Assembly: GCA_035476335.1 (NCBI GenBank)
Contig: DATILO010000105.1
Location: 1-37,312, forward strand
DNA length: 37,312 bases
Direction: 5' to 3'
Source of the DNA: Candidatus Binatia bacterium
GTDB taxonomy: Archaea > Nanobdellota > Nanobdellia > Woesearchaeales > ARS49
In this document: positions 5,908-36,949 of the stretch, piece after piece
Layout: each line of letters begins with the position of its first letter
Numbering within the stretch: the first letter of the stretch is position 1
Position numbers and translations under genes: made by a program
Notes under the pieces: model-generated
The model's database searches: none
What the model was told of the DNA's origin: nothing
The model's input: the letters and a program-made list of their open reading frames with translations, nothing else

Positions 5908-8626
<2,719 letters not shown>

Positions 8627-8913: not shown

Positions 8914-8920
8914 TCGTTAA

Positions 8921-9082
8921 CCGTTCTCAGGCAGGTTTGTCGTATCGTTGCTTCGTTTATGTCGTTGCACCCTGGTGATGGTTGTCGTTCGTGCGTTATC
9001 GATTTTTTGAAGACGACGCTACAAAACTACCTGGGAAGAAGAGCCAAGGTACAAACGACGCCTCAAATCTGCCGGGGACGCG
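8921..9082. repeat. cluster of four degenerate core motifs of the structured-repeat family (two forward, two reverse), forming an imperfect long palindrome
   Basis: Forward cores at 8921-8955 (CCGTTCTCAGGCAGGTTTGTCGTATCG) and 8971-9002 (GGTGATGGTTGTCGTTCGTGCG). Reverse cores at 9011-9045 (ACGACGCTACAAAACTACCTGGGAAGAAGAGCC) and 9049-9082 (GTACAAACGACGCCTCAAATCTGCCGGGGACGCG). Compare the core CCGGCAGTTTTGTCGTTCGTACGCG at 22530-22554. Confidence 0.55.
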
Positions 9083-9132
9083 CCAACGACGATAGCGCAA
9101 CCTTAATAAAGCCAACAACGTGCATTTCCTTC

Positions 9133-10419
9133 ATGCCAAAGCCAGGTGACAAGGTCTCAGTAATCACCACCGATGAAACCATTCACGGCGTTCTCCTGCC
9201 GGAAGAAAAGGATTTCATCGTGCTCAAGCTCGAGTCCGGCTACAACATCGGCATTGACAAGAAACGCGTGCGCGAAGTCAAGGTCGTTGCCGCACACCAG
9301 GAGAAAACCGAGTCCGCGAAAACGGCCGCGCAGCGCAAGGGACTCCCCACCATCACGATTCTGCACACCGGCGGCACCATCGCGAGCAAGGTCGATTACG
9401 AGACCGGTGCGGTGACGAACCGCTTCACGCCCGAGGAGATTCTCGCGCTCTTTCCCGAACTCAAGGACATTGCGAACATCGACTCGCGCCTCGTGCGCAA
9501 CATGGCGTCCGACGACATGCGGTTCGCGCACTACAACATCCTCGCGCACGAAGTCGCGAAGGAAGTCGCGAAAGGCGTCAAGGGCGTCATCATCACGCAC
9601 GGCACGGACACGCTCCACTACTCATCCGCCGCACTTTCCTTTGCGCTCCGCAACCTCCCCATTCCCGTGCTTCTGGTGGGCGCGCAACGCTCCTCAGACC
9701 GCGGAAGCTCGGATGCGGGCATGAACCTCATTGCCGCGGCAACCTTCATCGCGCAAACGGACTTGGCGGGCGTCGGCGTGTGCATGCACGAAACCTCGAA
9801 CGACAACACGTGCGTCGTGCTGCCGGGCACCAAGTGCCGGAAGCTCCACAGCTCGCGGAGAGACGCGTTCAAGCCCATCAACTCCGCGCCGTGGGCGCGC
9901 GTGGACCCGCAATCCAAGCGCATCAACTACTTCCGCACGGACTACCCGCGCAAGTCCGGCACGTTCGTCGTCAAGCCGTTCAAGGAAACGCTGCAAGTCG
10001 GCATCCTCTTCATCCACACGAACATGTATGCCGAACAATTCGCGTGCTACAAGGGCTGGAACGGGCTCGTGCTCGCGGGCACCGGCCTGGGGCACATCCC
10101 GATGAGCGAAATCGACGCGGAAACCAAGGAACACGCGAAGATTTTCAACGCCGTCAAGGACATCATCAAGTCAGGCACCGTCGTTGCGATGGCGACGCAG
10201 ACGCTCTTCGGACAAGTGGACATGAACGTCTATGCGCCCGGCAGAAAGCTCCAGGAAGCAGGCGTCATCGGCAACCTCACGGATCTGCATCCCGAAACCG
10301 CGTTCATCAAGCTCGCCTGGCTCCTGAGCAATTATCCCAAGGACGAAGCCCAAGCGCTCTATACCACGAACATCGCGGGCGAGCTCAGCGAACGCATCGA
10401 GCCCGGCGCGTTCCTCTAA
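9133..10419 (+). CDS. gatD: Glu-tRNA(Gln) amidotransferase subunit D
   Basis: N-terminal small barrel domain followed by an asparaginase-like domain (ILHTGGTIAS, THGTDT). The start is set at the ATG at 9133, because the upstream part of the tracked ORF is the repeat-filled intergenic region. Confidence 0.9.
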   Translation: MPKPGDKVSVITTDETIHGVLLPEEKDFIVLKLESGYNIGIDKKRVREVKVVAAHQEKTESAKTAAQRKGLPTITILHTGGTIASKVDYETGAVTNRFTPEEILALFPELKDIANIDSRLVRNMASDDMRFAHYNILAHEVAKEVAKGVKGVIITHGTDTLHYSSAALSFALRNLPIPVLLVGAQRSSDRGSSDAGMNLIAAATFIAQTDLAGVGVCMHETSNDNTCVVLPGTKCRKLHSSRRDAFKPINSAPWARVDPQSKRINYFRTDYPRKSGTFVVKPFKETLQVGILFIHTNMYAEQFACYKGWNGLVLAGTGLGHIPMSEIDAETKEHAKIFNAVKDIIKSGTVVAMATQTLFGQVDMNVYAPGRKLQEAGVIGNLTDLHPETAFIKLAWLLSNYPKDEAQALYTTNIAGELSERIEPGAFL

Positions 10420-17952: not shown

Positions 17953-19771
17953 CCCCTTCGGCAAATACCGGCTCGAGCGCGAGCTCGGCAAAGGCGCAAC
18001 GAAGACCGTCTGGGAAGCGTTTGACACCGTCCAGGAACGCAAGGTCGCGCTCAAGGTCTACGCTCCTGAAAACCTCCAAACCTCACCCAATGCCCTGTTC
18101 TATCCTCCCGATATGCAGTCCATTGAGCATGGCGAAGCAGTGGCGCAAACGCGGGCAGGACATCATCCCCACATCGCCACCATCTACGATGCAGGCCAGC
18201 GCGACGGATGGTTCTTCATCGTCGAGGAACTCATCGAAGGCAGGACGCTCGCGGACGTCGTCGCGGGACTCCCTCAACGTCGATTGCGCGCGTACGCGCG
18301 GGACATCTGCAGCGGGCTGCGGCATCTCCACCGGCGAGGCATCGTGCACGGCGACCTCAAGCTCGAAAACATCATCGTCGATGCTGCCGGTGCGCACATC
18401 ACGGATTTCGGCGCGGCCATGCTTCCCGCACGCCCGCCTGCAAGCCAAGGTTCCCTGCGCTATCGCGCACCAGAAATCATTGCAGGACAGAAGCTGACGC
18501 CTGCGAGCGATATGTGGCAGCTCGGCGTGCTCCTCTACCGCGCGGTCGCGGGAGCATTCCCCTTCAACACATCCGTCAGCGACTGGAGCGGTGCAACACC
18601 TGAACAGTTGCGGCACTATCGAGAAGAGCTCAAGCACGCCATCATGAACCAGCCGTTCACGCCGCTCAAAGGCGGCAACACGAACCTACGCGACGTCATC
18701 CACTCCTGCCTCCAGCAAGACCCGTCTCGACGCATGACGCCGCAGCAGGCCGCCTTGCGCCTCGGTCCCTTCGGCTGGTGGAAAGAACTGGCAATCGCAA
18801 GTGCGCTGAGCGTCGTTCTGGTGCCCGGCGTCTGGCTCGGGATGCGCCAGTATGCAGAAAAGACCGCCGACCCCGCGGACATCATCTTTACCGCATCGGA
18901 GCACGGTGCCGCATCACTCTACCGCGCAAACGCGAGCCTGCGCCCGGCAGAATCGCTCTCGGAAGGAGCATCCTTCGGGCTTACCGCGCACCCCTCGGGC
19001 AACGCATTCAGCTACGTCCGTGCATCCGTATCGGAACAGCAGCTACGGTTCCACACCGCTACGGACGAACGCGTGCTCTACACGGCAAAGCGCATCACGC
19101 AGCAGGCATGGTCTCCTGACGGCACCAAGCTTGCGGCGCTCGTGGAGACGGCAGACGATTACCTGCTCGTCATTCTCGGCAAGGATGGAACGCTCCTCAG
19201 CCAAGAGCGGGGACGCTATGAAAAAGACCTTGCCTGGCATCCGAGCGGCACCTATCTGACGGCACTTGCGAATAACGCGCTCTTTTGCCTCCAGCCCGGC
19301 CATTCACGCCGGGCAACCGAGTACCCTTCCGATATTATGACGTGCGCGTGGACGAGCCGCGGGCTCCTCGCCTATCGCCCTGACCCGGAACGCCCGCCCG
19401 GATTCATCGTGCGGTACGTGGGAAAGCAAGACGCCCCCGACAGGCACGAGCTCACGCTTATCTGGAACGAAACGTGGGGCAAGGCAAAGAAAATCGGCGA
19501 GCTGCGCGACAAGAGCGGCTACTGGTTCCTCAACGATGAACGGCTCACGGTCGAGCGCTGGGCAGACGCGCTCAATGCAACAATCATCAATGTTCCTGGA
19601 ACGGCGCTTGCGGCAGCGGAGGGGAAAAATGCAGAGGACTGGTTCATTGTTGCAAAACGCGACGGGCTTCCGGAATTATTGCACGCGCAGGTTGCGGGCG
19701 AACGGGTGCGCTGGACGCCGTATCTCGGAGCACGCGCGTTGGAAGAACTCATTTACCTCTCCAAACGCTAA
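17930..19771 (+). CDS. receptor-type Hanks Ser/Thr protein kinase: cytoplasmic kinase domain, one TM helix, TolB/WD40-like ectodomain
   Basis: Kinase motifs GKGATKTV, VALK, HGDLKLENIIVD, DFG and RYRAPE. TM helix LAIASALSVVLVPGVWLGM. The C-terminal half has repeated WSPDGTKLA / WHPSGTYLTA propeller-like motifs. Confidence 0.8.
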   Translation: MCTMDLPNPFGKYRLERELGKGATKTVWEAFDTVQERKVALKVYAPENLQTSPNALFYPPDMQSIEHGEAVAQTRAGHHPHIATIYDAGQRDGWFFIVEELIEGRTLADVVAGLPQRRLRAYARDICSGLRHLHRRGIVHGDLKLENIIVDAAGAHITDFGAAMLPARPPASQGSLRYRAPEIIAGQKLTPASDMWQLGVLLYRAVAGAFPFNTSVSDWSGATPEQLRHYREELKHAIMNQPFTPLKGGNTNLRDVIHSCLQQDPSRRMTPQQAALRLGPFGWWKELAIASALSVVLVPGVWLGMRQYAEKTADPADIIFTASEHGAASLYRANASLRPAESLSEGASFGLTAHPSGNAFSYVRASVSEQQLRFHTATDERVLYTAKRITQQAWSPDGTKLAALVETADDYLLVILGKDGTLLSQERGRYEKDLAWHPSGTYLTALANNALFCLQPGHSRRATEYPSDIMTCAWTSRGLLAYRPDPERPPGFIVRYVGKQDAPDRHELTLIWNETWGKAKKIGELRDKSGYWFLNDERLTVERWADALNATIINVPGTALAAAEGKNAEDWFIVAKRDGLPELLHAQVAGERVRWTPYLGARALEELIYLSKR

Positions 19772-20451
19772 CTGCACAGCTGCAGCGTCACCTGCAACGG
19801 CAACCCTGCAGTCGGCACAGGATTAGTTGACGCCTCAATCTCTCCGGAACAGTCCCCGCTCTCGAAATGGATGTCCTTGACCTTATCGGTTCCTGTGACC
19901 GAGAACGTGTAACTGCGCTTCCACGCACCCAGCGTTCCCGTGAGCATCTGCTCGAACGCATCGTGCACCGTTTCGCACGACGTTCTCCCGCCGCAATCAA
20001 TGCGCGAGAAAATCGCACAGTCCTGGAGGAGTTCAGTGACCGTTGCGTCGCGACAAGCCGAAGTGGTGCCAAGCATCGCAGTCACCATGCTCGAAGCGAG
20101 CTGCGACTCCTTGAACTGCCGCTCCGTCTGGGATGCGGGCGCGCGGAGCACGAAGAGAATCGCGAAGAGCACGCCGAGCATGATGAGCACGACGATGATG
20201 GCGAGTCCGAGGATTTCCATTTGTGCTCTTTTCTTCGGGGAGAGCGCCGCCTGTTGGCCAGCGAACGGAAGGCCGGGCGAAAGCTCCGGTGTTGATCGAC
20301 GCGTACGAACGACAAAACTGCCGGGGAACGGAGGAGCAGGGGACGCGGCGACCCTTGGCCGCAGCCAAGCTCCGAGCACCGAAGGTGCGAGGTTGGTGAG
20401 CGAGGCGCTCTCCCGGCGCGGCGAACGCGCGAACGTCCGAGCGTTACGCAA
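19768..20451 (-). CDS. type IV pilin-like protein A (class III signal motif KKRAQ then MEILGLAIIVVLIML)
   Basis: This is the last gene of the surface operon. The ORF opens at TTG 20451, overlapping the stop of gene B. The only in-frame ATG is at 20220, just after the KKRAQ motif, and an in-frame GTG lies at codon 25. Codons 13-71 are occupied by repeat copy 1, so the start is uncertain. Confidence 0.5.
   Translation of the reverse strand: MRNARTFARSPRRESASLTNLAPSVLGAWLRPRVAASPAPPFPGSFVVRTRRSTPELSPGLPFAGQQAALSPKKRAQMEILGLAIIVVLIMLGVLFAILFVLRAPASQTERQFKESQLASSMVTAMLGTTSACRDATVTELLQDCAIFSRIDCGGRTSCETVHDAFEQMLTGTLGAWKRSYTFSVTGTDKVKDIHFESGDCSGEIEASTNPVPTAGLPLQVTLQLCS
20238..20414 (-). repeat. structured repeat, copy 1 (177 nt)
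   Basis: Terminal helix GGGAGAGCGCC (20238-20248) / GGCGCTCTCCC (20404-20414). The core at 20296-20351 is 56/56 identical to the reverse complement of 22503-22558. Internal hairpins CTTGGC-CGCA-GCCAAG and GCACC-GAA-GGTGC. Confidence 0.75.
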
Positions 20452-20920
20452 AGACCGTCACCTCGAGATAGCCAAAAGCGTAGTGATTCGTTTCCGGCAG
20501 ATAGAGCAGCACGGGAATCTGCGCAACGCGTGACTCCTGCCGGTTCGGGTCTTCCTTGTCATAGATGACCACCTCATCGGCATCAGGGTATATCTTGTGC
20601 ACGGATACCTTTGCATACTCAAACGTCTTGAAGTAATCCACTTGCACATTCTCGTTCGTGAGCAGTTCCGCGAACTTTCTTGCCTTGAGTTCATCGACGC
20701 AGTTCTCTCGCTGGACGCCGATGCGCGAGCACTCAAGTTCGGGCAGCGTGAGCGATTTCTGCGCAATCTGAATGACCTTGAGCTGCGCATTCTCCTCCAT
20801 CTGGCGCTTCACCGAGGACTCCTGAAGCTTGAAGTAGAAGCTCGCGCCGAAGATGAGGAAAAAGAAAAATACTACGAGTACCGCGAGCGATTCAAACATC
20901 TTGACTTGTGCGCGTTTCAT
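20444..20920 (-). CDS. type IV pilin-like protein B (MKRAQ then VKMFESLAVLVVFFFF)
   Basis: The ATG at 20920 overlaps the stop of gene C (ATGA). A class III-like N-terminus is followed by a roughly 125-aa extracellular part with 2 Cys. Confidence 0.6.
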   Translation of the reverse strand: MKRAQVKMFESLAVLVVFFFFLIFGASFYFKLQESSVKRQMEENAQLKVIQIAQKSLTLPELECSRIGVQRENCVDELKARKFAELLTNENVQVDYFKTFEYAKVSVHKIYPDADEVVIYDKEDPNRQESRVAQIPVLLYLPETNHYAFGYLEVTVFA

Positions 20921-21951
20921 CAGTAAATCGTCGGGCAGCTCTGCCTGAGGAGTGCCTCGTTTTCTCCTGCGATGGATTGTGCGGCAACCGTAAGCGAGCC
21001 CAAGTCCGCGAGCGCGTCGACCTGTGCGGCCGCGCCTGAGCGCAGGACTTCCAGGTTCGTCGTGCTGTAGCCGCACCGGAGCAAATCGCCGTTGGCCTGA
21101 AGCACAATCGCGCGGTTCTCCATCACCTGCGCGACGTAGGACAGGCGCTTCACGGCCTCCTGCATGTTGCAGCGGTACATATTGTCATCATAGGCAAAAA
21201 TGGTGGCGAACAGCCCCGCATCGCCGATGTAGCTCAGCGCGCCCGACTGCTCACAGTCGCCGGTGCGCTGCGGATAGCACTTGAAGAACGTCGCCTGGCT
21301 GCCGGACAGGTGCACGCCGGTGATGTCCGTGTCCTTGAACGACTCGTGGAACGTCGTGACGCTCGGCGTTGTTTCGAGGAAGACAAACTTCACCTGCTGG
21401 TAGTTCTCGTTCTTCACGCAACCCGCATCGGAACTGCAAATTTGGGAGGGCTCGATGAACTCCGCGTTGATTTTGTCGGGAAGCTCCTGCTGCAGTTGCG
21501 CCTTGAGTTGGAGCGACGGCGTGCTGGAGTCAGAGACAAAAAAATACTTGATGCGGTCGTTGGTGACGTACAGGAAGTTTCCCGCACGGAAGGGCACGTT
21601 CCACGGCAGCGTCCAGAACACGATGTCCTTGCCCTCAATGTGATTCGGGGAAAAGATGATTTTGTCGCGATAGTCGCGGCTCAGCGAGCCGACCCGAAAC
21701 GCGCATGCGCATTCATCGCTGCACCCGAAGTCGATGCCCGTGCGCGGCAAATCAATGCGTTGTGCGCTTCCTTTGGACGATGCCGCACCCGTCGTGATGG
21801 CATCCAGCTCGTTGATGAGCGCGAGGGAAAGCTTCTCCTCGCTGACACTCCGCTGCTTTTGGATAATGCTGAAGAAGAACGCGAGTATCACCGCGCCCGC
21901 GATGATGATGAAAATCCAGTTGAACTGGACTTCAAGCATGCCGCGCTTCAT
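20920..21951 (-). CDS. type IV pilin-like protein C (MKRG then MLEVQFNWIFIIIAGAVILAFFF)
   Basis: The ATG at 21951 overlaps the stop of gene D (ATGA), with an alternative ATG at 21963. The extracellular domain is about 310 aa and Cys-containing. Confidence 0.6.
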   Translation of the reverse strand: MKRGMLEVQFNWIFIIIAGAVILAFFFSIIQKQRSVSEEKLSLALINELDAITTGAASSKGSAQRIDLPRTGIDFGCSDECACAFRVGSLSRDYRDKIIFSPNHIEGKDIVFWTLPWNVPFRAGNFLYVTNDRIKYFFVSDSSTPSLQLKAQLQQELPDKINAEFIEPSQICSSDAGCVKNENYQQVKFVFLETTPSVTTFHESFKDTDITGVHLSGSQATFFKCYPQRTGDCEQSGALSYIGDAGLFATIFAYDDNMYRCNMQEAVKRLSYVAQVMENRAIVLQANGDLLRCGYSTTNLEVLRSGAAAQVDALADLGSLTVAAQSIAGENEALLRQSCPTIY

Positions 21952-22616
21952 TGCGCGAGCCATGGACTCACCAACGCCCGGTCGCCTTTGCCTTCGAGGC
22001 GGAGCGTGACCTTTCCTTCGAGAATCTTCGTACAGAACGCACCGTTCGCGGCCTCGACGTGGTCAAGAAGAATCGGCGTCTCGGCAAGCGGGATGAGGAA
22101 GACGTTCTGCGCATTGCCCTGCGCCGACTCGAAAACGAGCGGATGTTCGGTTTGGAACGTACCGAGGGCGGGATTATCCTTGCGACAGTCGGCCGCCTTC
22201 GCGTCCATGCCTGGACTGCAGAGCACGCAGAGTTCCTGGTAGCGCGTGGGGAGCGTCAGGTCAAGCTTCTTGACGCTTCCATAGTCGAGACTCACCCCTT
22301 TCACGGCATTGCGGAATTCGGTCTCGAAATTGACGAACGCGACTTGCTCGGAGCGCTGCGTGAATTGGCTGATGGCTTTGTAGCCGTAAAGCAGGATGAG
22401 GATGAAAATCGCGGCTGCGAGAATTAAGATGAATACCTGGCCGATGATTTGGGCACGTTTCTGGAGAGCACGCGACTCGCTGAAGGCTGCCCCGCGCCCG
22501 TCTCGCCGCGTCCCCTGCTCCTCCGTTCCCCGGCAGTTTTGTCGTTCGTACGCGTCGACCTTATGCGGGACCATCTCCGGCCTTGACGTGCGCTCTTCAT
22601 GGCAGCCATCAGCCAT
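21948..22616 (-). CDS. type IV pilin-like protein D (QKRAQ then IIGQVFILILAAAIFILILLYGY) with a 52-aa pre-motif leader
   Basis: The ATG at 22616 overlaps the stop of the giant gene (TAATG). No ATG/GTG/TTG exists between the repeat and the KRAQ motif, so the leader, largely encoded by repeat copy 2, must be translated if the motif is used. Confidence 0.55.
   Translation of the reverse strand: MADGCHEERTSRPEMVPHKVDAYERQNCRGTEEQGTRRDGRGAAFSESRALQKRAQIIGQVFILILAAAIFILILLYGYKAISQFTQRSEQVAFVNFETEFRNAVKGVSLDYGSVKKLDLTLPTRYQELCVLCSPGMDAKAADCRKDNPALGTFQTEHPLVFESAQGNAQNVFLIPLAETPILLDHVEAANGAFCTKILEGKVTLRLEGKGDRALVSPWLAQ
22462..22599 (+). repeat. structured repeat, copy 2 (138 nt), inverted relative to copy 1
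   Basis: Terminal helix TGGAGAGC (22462-22469) / GCTCTTCA (22592-22599), which includes one G-T pair. Identical core at 22503-22558. Confidence 0.75.
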
Positions 22617-25600
22617 TATCTCCTCCTCTTCCGCTTTTCCCCACGCACGAACGCTTCGAGCTCCGCTTCCAGCTCTGCCTTGTGCGTTGCGTAGTACGCT
22701 GCGGTGATGCGGAGCTTGCGGAAGAGCTCTTCCATCTCCTCCTTCGTGAGCTTGCCTCTTCTGAGGAGCCGGAGCTTGAGGAGCAATTCCTTGCGCTCCT
22801 TTGGTGAGAGTCCTGCGAGCGCGAGTTCGCGGAGCCGGTCGAGCGGGGTTTCCTCGCGCTCGAGCTGCTTGAGGAGCTTCGGGTGCTCGCGTTCCGCGAG
22901 TTCGCCCTTGATGAACGCATCGAGCTTGCCGAACGTCTTTGCGCTCACGTCTTCGGGACCGAGCTTCTTGAGGTCCGCGACCGAGAGCCAGTCCTCAAGA
23001 TGAGGTGTTTCTGGCTGCTTCTTCTCAGGTGCCGGAGGTAAGGGCGGCGCTTCAGGCGCAAGGAACGGAATGCTCTTGCGGAACTGCCGCAGGCGGCGCT
23101 TCACTTCCTCGGGTTTCTTGCGATAGTAGAGATAGCCGAGCACGATAAGCAGCAGGAGCAACAGGAGGAGCAGCCACCAGAGCCATCCGAGACCGCTGCC
23201 GTCGGAAACCAAGGGGTTCTTGCCCAGGCGGAATTCTTCGAGATTCGTCAAGCCATCGCCGTCGGGGTCTGCATCGGCTGCGGCATCGCCCTCGCAGATG
23301 ACATCGCCGAAGAAGAGGATTCTCCACGAGTCCGGAATCTCGTCGCCGCACGAGTGGCGCTGGCTTGCGCTGCAGCCGTACTCGTCAACGACTTCTCCGG
23401 ATGGCGTTCCGGGACACTTGTCAAGCGCGTCAGGCACGCCGTCGCCGTCCTCATCGGCAATGGCTGCGCAGACGCCGTTCACGCACGAGGTGCCGTTGAT
23501 GCAGTCCGCGCTGACCGTGCAGCTCTGTCCGACACCGCACTTTTGGGAACAGGCGCCGCCGCAGTCAATGTCGCTCTCGAGACCGTCAAGCTTGCCGTTC
23601 TTGCACGGATTGTCCGAGCAGATGCCCGCATCACAGTAGTTGCTCATGCAGTCTTCATTGATCGCGCACGTCTTGTTATTCGCGCATTGCGGACACTGGT
23701 TGCCGCCGCAGTCAATGTCGGTCTCGTTGCCGCCGTTGATTTTGTCCGTGCAGAGCGAGGGCTGGCAAATCTTGCTTGCGTTGCAGATGCGCGACATGCA
23801 ATCTGAGTTGATGGCGCACTTCTTGTAATCGGCGCACTGGGGGCAGATTGCGCCGCAGTCGACATCGGTCTCATTACCCACGTCAAAGAGCTGGTTGAGG
23901 CATTGCGGCGGAATCTTGCTGAAATCGATGATGACGCCGTCGCTCGGGAGCTCGGTGCTCAGGAGCGATGCCTTGTTTTCGGCCTTGACGCGGAAGTAGT
24001 AGCTCGTGCCGTTCGTGAGATTCAATCCCGTGACCCACCAGGGCAGTCCGTCGAGAATGACGCTCGGCGTCCAGTTCTTGAGCACGACACTGGTCGCCTT
24101 TTCCTGGACAAGATAGTGATAGCGCGAGACATTGCTCTCATTGTCCGTGCCGTTCATCGCGATGCGGAGCTGATTCTTGAAGTACGAGTACTGCGGCCAC
24201 TCAGGGTTGTTGCTCGTGTCGTCTGCATAGAGCATGTCCGGCGGAGTCGTATCAACGTAGAACGTGACATTGATAGTCTTCTGCTCGATGCCTGCTGCGG
24301 ACGTGCCCGAACCGGTCGCGCACGTGACCGGGATGGAGTACGGTCCGGGTCCCGGGACCGTGATGAGCGTCGTGTGCGCCATCGCAGCCGTATCCGTGCT
24401 GCCGATGGGCAGGAGCGCGCCGTCCTGCTCATAATAGCAGAACGTGTCCTTGTTCGTTTCGACACCGAGAGGAACGGTGACATTGCCGACAAACGGCGGG
24501 ACAATGCTCTTGACGGTGAGGCTCAAGTTGAGGTTCACGCTGAACGTCACGGAAGCACTTGCGGGACCCAGCCCTGCGAGATTCTTGCAGGCAATCTTAT
24601 AGGTGTAGGACGCGGGCGCGGGAACCGTCACGTTGACCGCGTGGCCCTGCAGGCCGAGAATGCCGAACATCGGGAATACGCCTTCCATGAGGTCATAGTT
24701 GTTCGTAGTGTTGCTGTACTTACAGAAGGTGAGGTCATCCGTCTGCACTTTCAGCGTCGTCTGCAGCGGCATCTGGACAATCGGGTTGGGAATCGCGAAG
24801 GCCGTGACAATCTTGGGCGGGCTCGTGTCCACGGTAAGATAGAATGTGCTGCTTCCCGTGCCCGTGACCGGGTCGACGCAGCGCACATACACTTTATAGG
24901 GTGTGTTCTCCTTGGTGATTTCGTTAAACACGTTCTTCAGATGCACGAAGTCATTCGTGCTGTCAAAGGGCTGGAGCGCGGTGAACAAGCCGGGCGGCGG
25001 AACGGTCTGGCTGCTCCAGTAACGGCATTCCGCGACGCTGTCTGTCTCGACCGCGAACGGGAACGAGAACGTGCTGCTCACTCCGTACGGCGGGAGCTTG
25101 AGCGTGACGATGGGAGGGGCTGCGTTCACGACGAAGAGACTGCTGTTCGTCGCAGGCGAGAGCGGGTTACCTGCGTAGTCGGTGACGATGGGGCGGATGA
25201 TTTTCTTGCCCTCCGTCAGCGTGAGCGTCGCGGTGTACGTGCGATTGTCGTTGCCCTTTGCAAAGAGCCCGGTAATATCATGAATTTCCGGCACGCTGAT
25301 GGGTCCCGCGCTCGTGTTATAGATGACGTATTCAATGAGGGTGAAGTTCTGGACAATCACCGGCTCGCTGAAGTTGACCTTGAGTGTGGTCGAGCCCGTG
25401 CTCAGCACCGCGCTGTCGGTCGGCGTGTAGTTTGCAATCGGCGGCGTCGTGTCAACGACGGCAGGTACGCTCACCGGGGCGTCCATGTAGACGTTGTTCG
25501 TGTCACGTGCATTGGCGGAGAAAATATACTTCCCTTCGGCAAGCGATGTTCCCGACGGCACGGTGAGCGTGTACGCACCATTGAATCCTGACGCGGGCGA

Positions 25601-34227: not shown

Positions 34228-34238
34228 GTTATTTAAAC
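34228..34238. promoter_or_regulatory. near-palindromic TATA (TTATTTAAA) between rnp3 and the pseudouridine synthase gene
   Basis: Lies about 26 nt from the rnp3 ATG (34207) and about 160 nt from the ATG at 34393. A rightward transcript from this box would therefore carry repeat copy 3 as its leader. Confidence 0.4.
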
Positions 34239-34256
34239 GTTTGTAGCGAGAAACGA

Positions 34257-34386
34257 GGAGGACGCCGCCTGTTGGCCAGCGAGCTGAAGGCCGGCTGAAG
34301 TCCCGCATCAGGTCGCTGCTACGACGTCCAATCTGCCGGAGAACGGCAAACGACGCAATGCAGCGACAGCGAGCGGGGCGTCCTCC
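34257..34386 (-). repeat. structured repeat, copy 3 (130 nt)
   Basis: Perfect 10-bp terminal helix GGAGGACGCC (34257-34266) / GGCGTCCTCC (34377-34386). The interior aligns at about 70% by eye to copy 1 (CGTTCTCCGGCAGATTGGACGTCGT...CCGGCCTTCAGCTCGCTGGCCAACAGGCGGCG). It ends 6 nt before the ATG at 34393. Confidence 0.7.
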
Positions 34387-34392
34387 AACACC

Positions 34393-36764: not shown

Positions 36765-36774
36765 GATAACTCGC

Positions 36775-36906
36775 TGGAGCTTGCCGTGCGCTCATGTCGC
36801 TGCTCGTCAGGCTCTTGCTTCCCCGGTAGTTTTGTCGTTGCGTTCGCAGCGACCAGTGGCCGGTTTGCAGAAGGTTCCTCACTCGCGCACCTTCAGGCAA
36901 GCTCCA
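36775..36906 (+). repeat. structured repeat, copy 4 (132 nt)
   Basis: Perfect 11-bp terminal helix TGGAGCTTGCC (36775-36785) / GGCAAGCTCCA (36896-36906). Core CTTCCCCGGTAGTTTTGTCGTTGCGTTCG at 36818-36846. The left end lies 10 nt from the thiI-like ATG (36764). Confidence 0.7.
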
Positions 36907-36937
36907 GCGTGCAGGCGTTCCTTTTCTTCACAGCCAA

Positions 36938-36949
36938 AGCTTTATAAAC
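36938..36949. promoter_or_regulatory. palindromic TATA (AGCTTTATAAAC) for rpl34e and possibly, leftward, for the thiI-like operon
   Basis: Lies about 27 nt upstream of the rpl34e ATG at 36971. A leftward transcript would carry repeat copy 4 as its 5' leader. Confidence 0.5.

Follow-up and report, generated by a model that had tools for sequence, protein, structure and literature searches.

A 56-nt inverted repeat pair in a woesearchaeal surface operon as two probable independent insertions of a small hairpin-forming repeat

Within an operon of surface-protein genes in a Woesearchaeota-like genome, one 56-nt sequence recurs 2.15 kb further on as its exact reverse complement. This arrangement raises the question whether the two copies form a device that serves the operon or arrived there by other means. 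We analysed the locus in the context of positions 1 to 37,312 of contig DATILO010000105.1 (assembly GCA_035476335.1), a stretch of 37,312 nucleotides hereafter referred to as the window. A first-pass annotation of this DNA had attributed the identity to recent gene conversion or strong constraint and had pointed out that the inverted geometry would permit inversion, or pairing of the two cores within one polycistronic RNA. Our analysis makes it quite probable that the pair represents two independent insertions, in opposite orientation, of one small, hairpin-forming, selfish interspersed repeat that has recently multiplied and spread in this Woesearchaeota genome, and that it is no dedicated switch.

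The inverted match itself is genuine. The two arms agree over all 56 nt without a mismatch, a search tolerating up to three mismatches finds only these two sites, and none of 100 dinucleotide-preserving shuffles yields a match. Similarity between the arms reaches 92 nt at 82% identity (20260-20351 against 22503-22594), with 2151 nt between the arms. The copies to which the arms belong, designated c1 and c2, are only 45% identical outside the core on the 5' side and 43% on the 3' side, in agreement with the description of a perfect core set in diverged flanks. The annotation's statement on closing helices retained by each copy is clearly borne out by c1, in which GGGGAGAGCGCC and GGCGCTCTCCC form 12 bp, and only weakly by c2, whose helix comprises 5+4 bp with a bulge and whose whole-element fold is no better than that of shuffled sequence (z = +0.5). 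The pair does bracket genes B and C together with the entire conserved part of gene D; open reading frame (ORF) D is extended at its N-terminus by 50 residues that are without counterpart in any homologue, and c2 falls within this extension.

Sensitive self-comparison and a model search revealed three further related elements that the annotation had not mentioned, so that the window holds at least five copies of one family (Table 1), with partial copies appearing in the self-comparison at about 34263, 36819 and 8921. Alignment of the five window copies yields a common core, ...ACGACAAAACTGCCGGGGAACGG..., and a degenerate 23-nt version of the core served as the query for a census across public collections. 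In its strict form the core occurs four times in the window, in 23 contigs of the metagenome Ga0307473 and at two loci of the groundwater Woesearchaeota metagenome-assembled genome (MAG) JACQNC01. The contigs of Ga0307473 derive from the window's own organism, because the GT39 protein on one of them (L011) is 100% identical to HSU72766.1, gene D of the window corresponds to HSU73225.1, and both accessions come from one MAG submission, a third-party annotation (TPA) MAG at NCBI. This organism thus contributes at least 27 strict-core copies. A looser core search gives 48 matches in the fetched DNA and none in shuffled DNA, and the window together with a 7.8-kb extension (identical contig L030) carries six elements in about 45 kb. 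No protein synteny connects the window with the metagenome contigs; the repeats alone match. The viral contigs that were scanned contain no family match. A match in a Verrucomicrobiota contig (L003, identical to L006) was set aside as chance, about one being expected for a 40-bit pattern in that database; it consists of 25 nt that are near-perfect to the core (GAACGACAAATCTGCCGGGGAACGG), about 10 nt from a gene start and on the opposite strand of this bacterial contig. We found no published description of this repeat family, which behaves as an element similar to miniature inverted-repeat transposable elements (hereafter MITEs) or Rickettsia palindromic elements (RPEs).

Table 1. Positions in the window of the repeat copies, their insertion sites and the operon genes (CM, covariance model; c1-c4, copies of the repeat family).
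Feature	Position	Strand	Remarks
Core arm 1	20296-20351	+	identical to arm 2; element sense on the + strand, antisense to the operon
Core arm 2	22503-22558	-	element sense on the - strand, operon sense
c1	20234-20417	+	full type A, 184 nt; CM match 104 bits, E 7e-21; nhmmer
c2	22459-22603	-	degraded type A, 145 nt, part of the 5' arm missing; CM match 57 bits, E 1.5e-10
c3	34252-34390	+	intact type A; CM match 148 bits; nhmmer 34255-34387 (133 nt)
c4	36772-36910	-	diverged family member; weak CM match, 21.7 bits, E 0.011
Type B mosaic	8914-9100	-	contains several core modules, some in each orientation; located between the stop codon of PpiC and the TATA box of GatD
Site of c3	between TATA box (34229-34237) and ATG (34393)		pseudouridine synthase gene; element absent in relatives
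Site of c4	between TATA box (36940-36947) and ATG (36764)		ThiI-like gene; element absent in relatives
Gene A	19768-20451	-	227 aa from the TTG at the orthologous start position; alternative ATG 20220 gives 150 aa
Gene B	20444-20920	-	begins MKRAQ, then hydrophobic helix
Gene C	20920-21963	-	
Gene D	21948-22616	-	222 aa, protein HSU73225.1
Block inserted in gene A relative to the orthologue	20233-20445	-	72 codons (216 nt, boundaries +/-3 nt), in frame, stop-free, between M-R and K-R-A-Q-M-E-I-L
Block inserted in gene D relative to about 97 homologues	22464-22613	-	about 50 codons, in frame, stop-free, before K-R-A-Q-I-I-G-Q
7-nt tandem duplication ATGGCTG ATGGCTG	22603-22616	-	directly 5' of c2; brings the ancestral ATG into the gene D frame

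The comparison with the nearest relatives is what carries this interpretation. All four copies c1-c4, as well as a type B copy just beyond the window (L030:8036-8141), are missing at the syntenic sites. The operon of the closest relative (L028/L029, 74% identity for D) has the order LamG giant protein, 427-aa protein, 1684-aa protein, D, C, B, A and contains no element; its junctions are tight, with an overlap of 4 nt between E and D and of 8 nt between B and A. The closest relatives thus share the operon, its gene order and its orientation, possess neither copy and have overlapping start and stop codons at both junctions, which argues against a feature built for this operon. The first-pass annotation had itself named relatives that lack one or both copies and have an unaffected operon, next to reads of a single orientation, as the mark of an incidental repeat insertion, and the relatives present this situation.

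The same holds at the other sites. For the c3 locus, the relatives compared share 89% and 80% protein identity, and the spacer between the RNase P p30 and pseudouridine synthase genes measures 185 nt in the window as opposed to 52 nt in these relatives, where the TATA box lies 22 nt from the ATG. The difference of 133 nt corresponds to c3 (the nhmmer match in Table 1). Both c3 and c4 are absent in L032-L035, where the spacing from TATA box to ATG is 22-24 nt, and the type B copy on L030 separates the ends of two convergent genes, for which the distance in relatives is 10-15 nt. The scanned syntenic loci of the relatives are essentially devoid of family matches, the exception being one weak type B match in L034. 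Judging from these alignments, c1, c2, c3 and c4 are all recent insertions, because the closest relatives have tight operon junctions and spacers without them at the syntenic loci, and the presence/absence pattern is, on the same grounds, that of a recently expanded mobile repeat.

Individual elements measure 106-185 nt; the repeat as such spans about 140-185 nt with a G+C content of about 66%, is non-coding and forms hairpins. Type A copies are about 133-140 nt long, the 184 nt of c1 being due to an extra module of about 42 nt on a backbone that is closest to copy L007. They consist of an 11-12-bp closing helix, a 5' arm GCC..TTGGCCAGCGAGCTGAAGGCCGG and a central hairpin with the tip CUGCCG-GRGAA-CGGCAG. 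Type B is palindromic: two cores of opposite orientation, separated by about 25 nt, stand between ends of the CACTCACCAACACTCA type. Hybrids of the two types (L011, L026) as well as multi-core mosaics (the type B mosaic of the window, L013, L014) also occur. Copies have different sequences in the closing inverted repeat, and the changes compensate each other: among the 11 pairs of the type A closing helix, five have Watson-Crick swaps on both sides, G-U pairs and broken pairs are absent, and 93.6% of cells are paired overall as compared to about 40% when the partners are slid. In order to separate RNA from DNA structure, we compared the folding of the two strands, which fold about equally well (z about -2 to -5) without asymmetry.

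The compensatory changes in the closing helix, together with the strong fold z-scores of copies (-4 to -5) and with the location of c3, c4, L017 and L007 between TATA box and ATG in sense orientation, where they must be transcribed as leaders of about 140 nt, would fit a family of functional structured RNAs, that is a cis-regulatory 5' leader or a small RNA, with c1 and c2 controlling genes A and D. We regard such a role as rather unlikely. Relatives at 80-89% identity have these genes without the element. Its orientation with respect to the neighbouring gene varies (c1 and L013b being antisense), copies lie also between the ends of converging genes and inside ORFs, and the genes downstream of it are mutually unrelated. 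Folding is strand-symmetric, the closing helix is free of G-U pairs and c2 itself is not significantly structured. A scan of the whole window against Rfam 15 (E<=1) recovered two tRNA-Arg genes only and no family match for the element. The idea of an H/ACA or kink-turn small RNA, suggested by an ACA after the hairpin in c3 and c4, was rejected: c1 and c2 are without ACA, and there is no family match.

At the operon itself, the two insertions lie 0-2 codons past the ancestral start codons of genes A and D, and the reading frame stays open from the ancestral start through both of them, adding 72 N-terminal residues to gene A and 50 to gene D. The orthologue of gene A starts ATG CGT AAG GGA CAG ATG GAA (MRKGQMEIL). 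Read from the TTG at 20451, the window gene begins M-R, continues through 72 residues encoded by the reverse strand of c1 and resumes with K-R-A-Q-M-E-I-L, after which the remainder aligns gap-free to the orthologue. Similarly, gene D starts with an ATG at 22616 that shares bases with the stop codon of gene E, in the window as in the orthologue, and translation from it reads through c2 into K-R-A-Q-I-I-G-Q. Alignments to the 97 homologues of gene D take in no more than about 75% of the query, and the homologues have, with few exceptions, 156-190 aa; those inspected start M-[KR]-[KR]-[GA]-Q-I-[IL]-G-Q. The 50-residue extension of the window protein is translated c2 and is unique among the 97. 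The 7-nt tandem duplication directly upstream of c2 (Table 1), of a kind found at only five places in the window, may be a compensatory frameshift and would then point to selection keeping D translated.

A third in-frame case is the GT39 gene on L011, where 43 residues precede the conserved start and the ATG abuts the element directly (ATGAG followed by GGAGAACGCC; compare ATGAA followed by GAGCGCAC at c2). In this gene (L011:536-2038, - strand) an A/B hybrid element stands right after the ATG, and the start annotated at NCBI lies within the element (P0219, 489 aa). A JGI GT39 homologue from another sample (P0221, 66% identical) has a different N-terminal extension of about 45 aa, which may represent recurrent insertion at one and the same N-terminus in related lineages. 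The three in-frame copies (gene A, gene D, GT39) use different frames or strands and encode unrelated peptides: the frame of c2 differs from that of the L011 copy, and c1 is read on the other strand, so that no particular peptide is conserved.

For gene D, the element could also be thought of as being removed from the RNA in the manner of an intron, for example by bulge-helix-bulge (BHB) splicing. Excision after ATG(A) at 22598-22600 would create ATG AAA CGT GCC CAA and restore the MKRAQ start (MKRAQIIGQ, as in homologue P0012). This explanation appears exceedingly improbable: the same excision gives no clean junction in gene A, the ORFs are open in frame already, and Rfam reports no ribozyme or intron family. 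The closing helices are moreover continuous over 11-12 bp and lack the two 3-nt bulges of the BHB motif, and a BHB intron was rejected on account of these continuous stems.

Returning to the insertion of a selfish repeat, genes A and D would stay expressible as N-terminally extended precursors. The added residues of both would be followed by a basic motif, M-[KR]-[KR]-[GA]-Q, and then by a long hydrophobic helix, an arrangement resembling a prepilin-type leader that is to be cleaved; we hypothesise that such a prepilin-like leader is cleaved off, and a cleavable leader would make the N-terminal positions permissive for insertions. Genes A, B and D share the motif and the ensuing hydrophobic helix, and 50 homologues carry the motif. 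For the D family, an AlphaFold2 model (predicted local distance difference test, pLDDT, 94) predicts a 57-residue N-terminal helix followed by a beta-sheet head, which is a pilin-like layout. In archaeal type IV pilin-like proteins with a class III signal peptide, a short basic leader with G/A at -1 and Q at +1 leads into a hydrophobic N-terminal helix and a beta-rich head. The family of gene D, taken as the window gene and its homologues, comprises about 97 clusters across Woesearchaeota and DPANN without a Pfam or NCBIfam model and may be an uncharacterised pilin-like family. Exact-sequence look-ups of gene C and of a kinase returned no record.

If c1 and c2 are independent insertions, the perfect identity of their cores calls for an explanation of its own. 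The first-pass annotation had left the choice between gene conversion and constraint, and the evidence separates the two. The first 36 nt of the tract are the conserved core of the family; its last 20 nt (AGGAGCAGGGGACGCGGCGA) vary among family members and recur, outside c1 and c2, only in L026 (15/20). As these 20 nt vary across the family, constraint cannot explain the identity there. Conversion or recombination, on the other hand, is favoured by the abrupt switch from 100% to about 45% identity between copies with differing subfamily backbones: the 5' and 3' parts of c1 are closest to L007 (92% over 93 nt), the 5' part of c2 resembles c3 and L012, and the 3' part of c2 resembles c4. With 56 nt, the tract is the longest exact one among 406 family pairs, followed by tracts of 47 nt (within the other MAG) and 44 nt. 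The best reading of the alignments is a gene-conversion, recombination or template-switch tract, which would have been short and would have joined two copies about 2 kb apart that otherwise belong to different subfamilies. This fits the mosaic character of the family in general.

The geometry of the pair, a perfect inverted identity of 56 bp at a distance of 2.15 kb, would allow recombination between the arms to flip the B-C-D segment and thereby turn expression of the pilin-like genes on or off. The Logan k=31 contig L036 (window 22470-20322), which covers the segment between the repeats, stops 30 nt into the c1 core, and such a break at the repeat means that short-read graphs are compatible with two orientations; as a graph break, it carries no orientation information. 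The other end of L036 starts 33 nt short of the c2 core, suggesting an extra graph branch and possible population heterogeneity in the 3' part of c2. Against an invertible segment, the order and orientation of B-C-D in the window are those of the ancestral synteny in the repeat-free relatives, and a k=141 assembly (L037) is 100% identical with the same single orientation, so that two assemblies show one orientation of the inter-repeat segment. No recombinase or integrase appears in the Pfam tables for genes called up to about 8-10 kb from the pair or from c3/c4, nor did Pfam yield one for the proteins of the operon. As repeats, the arms are unexceptional, belonging to a family spread over the genome, and inversion would disrupt an operon of overlapping genes. 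An expression switch of this kind is therefore very unlikely in our view, and the inversion envisaged by the annotation finds no trace in the assemblies.

Two other arrangements that would give the pair a role as a unit were rejected. A diversity-generating retroelement with its template and variable repeats was considered on geometric grounds alone; the repeat forms a family of many copies, and no reverse transcriptase is listed in the Pfam tables used for the neighbourhood. As to a composite transposon carrying B-C-D, these genes occupy the same place in the relatives, where repeats are absent, and the arms are wrongly oriented when compared to the type B palindrome.

The pairing of the two cores in RNA can be judged from predicted energies. 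The c2:c1 duplex is computed at -232.8 kcal/mol as compared to -152 kcal/mol for both local folds (-62.6 and -89.4 kcal/mol), a favourable value, as it would be for any inverted repeat within one transcript. If the operon is one transcript, both copies would lie in the same direction of transcription, and their cores could form a double-stranded RNA (dsRNA) of 56 bp that loops out D-C-B and serves as a site of processing or translation control. We assign little weight to this model, giving it only a very slim chance: both copies are in translated regions, where ribosomes would unwind the duplex, local folding of each copy comes first during transcription, and the relatives run the operon without the repeats. 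The pair as such would have no dedicated function, with possible dsRNA formation in the operon transcript and the potential for inversion as side effects of two repeat insertions.

With regard to how the repeat moves, its strand-symmetric hairpin, the compensatory stem changes and the lack of a clear target-site duplication suggest a process that would depend on hairpins or single-stranded DNA (ssDNA), or on recombination, rather than classical DDE transposition. Speculatively, either the structure (ssDNA or hairpin) would be recognised or the repeat would spread by recombination.

Several observations weigh against the account of a mobile selfish repeat given here. No autonomous partner was found, the genes flanked by elements being housekeeping genes (ribosomal protein S28e, NFACT, HIT and similar); in 54 large ORFs of the same genome there is no transposase or integrase among the families listed (first 25), and the viral contigs contain no transposase-bearing partner. 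There is no consistent target-site duplication at the filled and empty sites of c1-c4 or in the flanks of five more copies, where only 2-3-nt repeats (AA/GAA/AAC) are seen. Compensatory changes in the closing repeat are unusual for terminal inverted repeats recognised by a transposase and would also fit a selected RNA structure, and the four type A copies in sense orientation between TATA box and ATG could hint at a function as 5' leader. As for the insertions in coding sequence, about half of the six frames through the elements are stop-free (P about 0.23-0.4 per insertion), so that read-through of the GC-rich elements is unremarkable and not compelling alone. The designation of A-D as pilin-like is based on motif and AlphaFold architecture only, with no Pfam, NCBIfam or PDB match in sequence or fold.

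A more specific proposal would be an archaeal (DPANN) mobile hairpin element without fixed ends or target-site duplication that prefers start sites, either between TATA box and ATG or within the first two codons, and that an unknown hairpin- or ssDNA-recognising enzyme might mobilise. We consider this unlikely, if still conceivable. Were it true, the element would be tolerated as it is stop-free in most frames and the N-terminal leaders of prepilin-like and membrane proteins are dispensable; leaderless genes would thereby gain long structured leaders and new N-terminal peptides.

The family shares features with several known systems and departs from each in some respects. MITEs are known in Sulfolobus and Haloquadratum. 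The present repeat is likewise small, non-coding and multi-copy, has terminal inverted repeats (11-12 bp in type A), and shows presence/absence between close relatives with a burst confined to one lineage. It differs from MITEs in its lack of a consistent target-site duplication, in inverted repeats that vary with compensatory changes and in its modular, mosaic architecture, and a parent insertion sequence or transposase was not found among the element-flanked genes, the 54 large ORFs (families listed) or the viral contigs. A Woesearchaeal genome ranks, at 105 MITEs/Mb, with the archaeal genomes of highest MITE density (PMC11602168). RPEs are palindromic interspersed repeats of about 100-150 nt that are often located in frame inside ORFs, adding a peptide without destroying the gene (PMC10969869). 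In-frame insertion is seen here in three of about nine type A copies (gene A, gene D, GT39). In contrast to RPEs, the family resides in an archaeon, it is unrelated to them in sequence (no direct homology search against RPE families was made), the encoded peptides are not conserved, and insertions cluster at the extreme N-terminus or between TATA box and ATG.

Repetitive extragenic palindromic (REP) sequences and bacterial interspersed mosaic elements (BIMEs) are mobilised by REP-associated tyrosine transposases (RAYTs). Like them, the family consists of short palindromic modules in mosaics of alternating orientation at gene junctions, with the hairpin kept over the exact sequence. Its units are larger, however, a conserved tetranucleotide of the GTAG type is lacking, elements also lie in coding sequence and in promoter-to-ATG spacers, and a RAYT/Y1 (HUH) transposase was not seen in the approximately 175 kb examined. 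With invertible switches of the fimS/hin type, the pair has in common that two identical inverted repeats flank a segment of a few kb with surface-structure genes; it differs in that no recombinase was found nearby, the repeats are generic family members absent in relatives, and only the ancestral orientation is found.

The contig was deposited as 'MAG TPA: Candidatus Binatia bacterium' (e.g. HSU73225.1), and its genes are archaeal and Woesearchaeota-like. Archaeal signs include RNase P p30, an archaeal GatD, leaderless promoters with TATA box and best protein matches in Woesearchaeota. Because of this gene content, the record is mis-binned or mislabelled.

The repeats also affect gene calls. 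The GatD ORF (8959-10419, + strand) is over-extended by about 58 codons through the type B repeat, its family match beginning at residue 61; its true start is likely the ATG at 9133, preceded by a TATA box at 9102-9111. An ORF for ribosomal protein S28e (L004:2250-2753, - strand) has an N-terminal over-extension of about 95 aa, with Pfam matching residues 100-159 only, and may read through upstream repeat DNA. Two sets of direct repeats in the window are outside the element family: 7496-7592 and 8321-8417 correspond to the D1 and D2 AAA domains of a CDC48-like gene, and 23555-23579 and 23702-23726 (147-nt spacing) lie inside the gene for the 1683-aa surface protein.

Selfish-DNA activity, rather than a regulatory device, would thus explain a striking sequence feature, and the pair itself is ordinary. 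Practical consequences of the repeat family are mis-called ORF starts (GatD, gene A, gene D) and short-read assemblies that break at its copies. Of modest interest is that insertions in this compact DPANN genome lie in frame and close to gene starts. With a recent burst of the structured repeat, elements would be wedged into the only free positions of such a reduced archaeal genome, namely promoter-to-ATG spacers and the first codons of genes. The three in-frame N-terminal insertions, together with the possibly compensatory 7-nt duplication, would amount to a natural experiment, if a small one, in the tolerance of compact genomes to repeat invasion.

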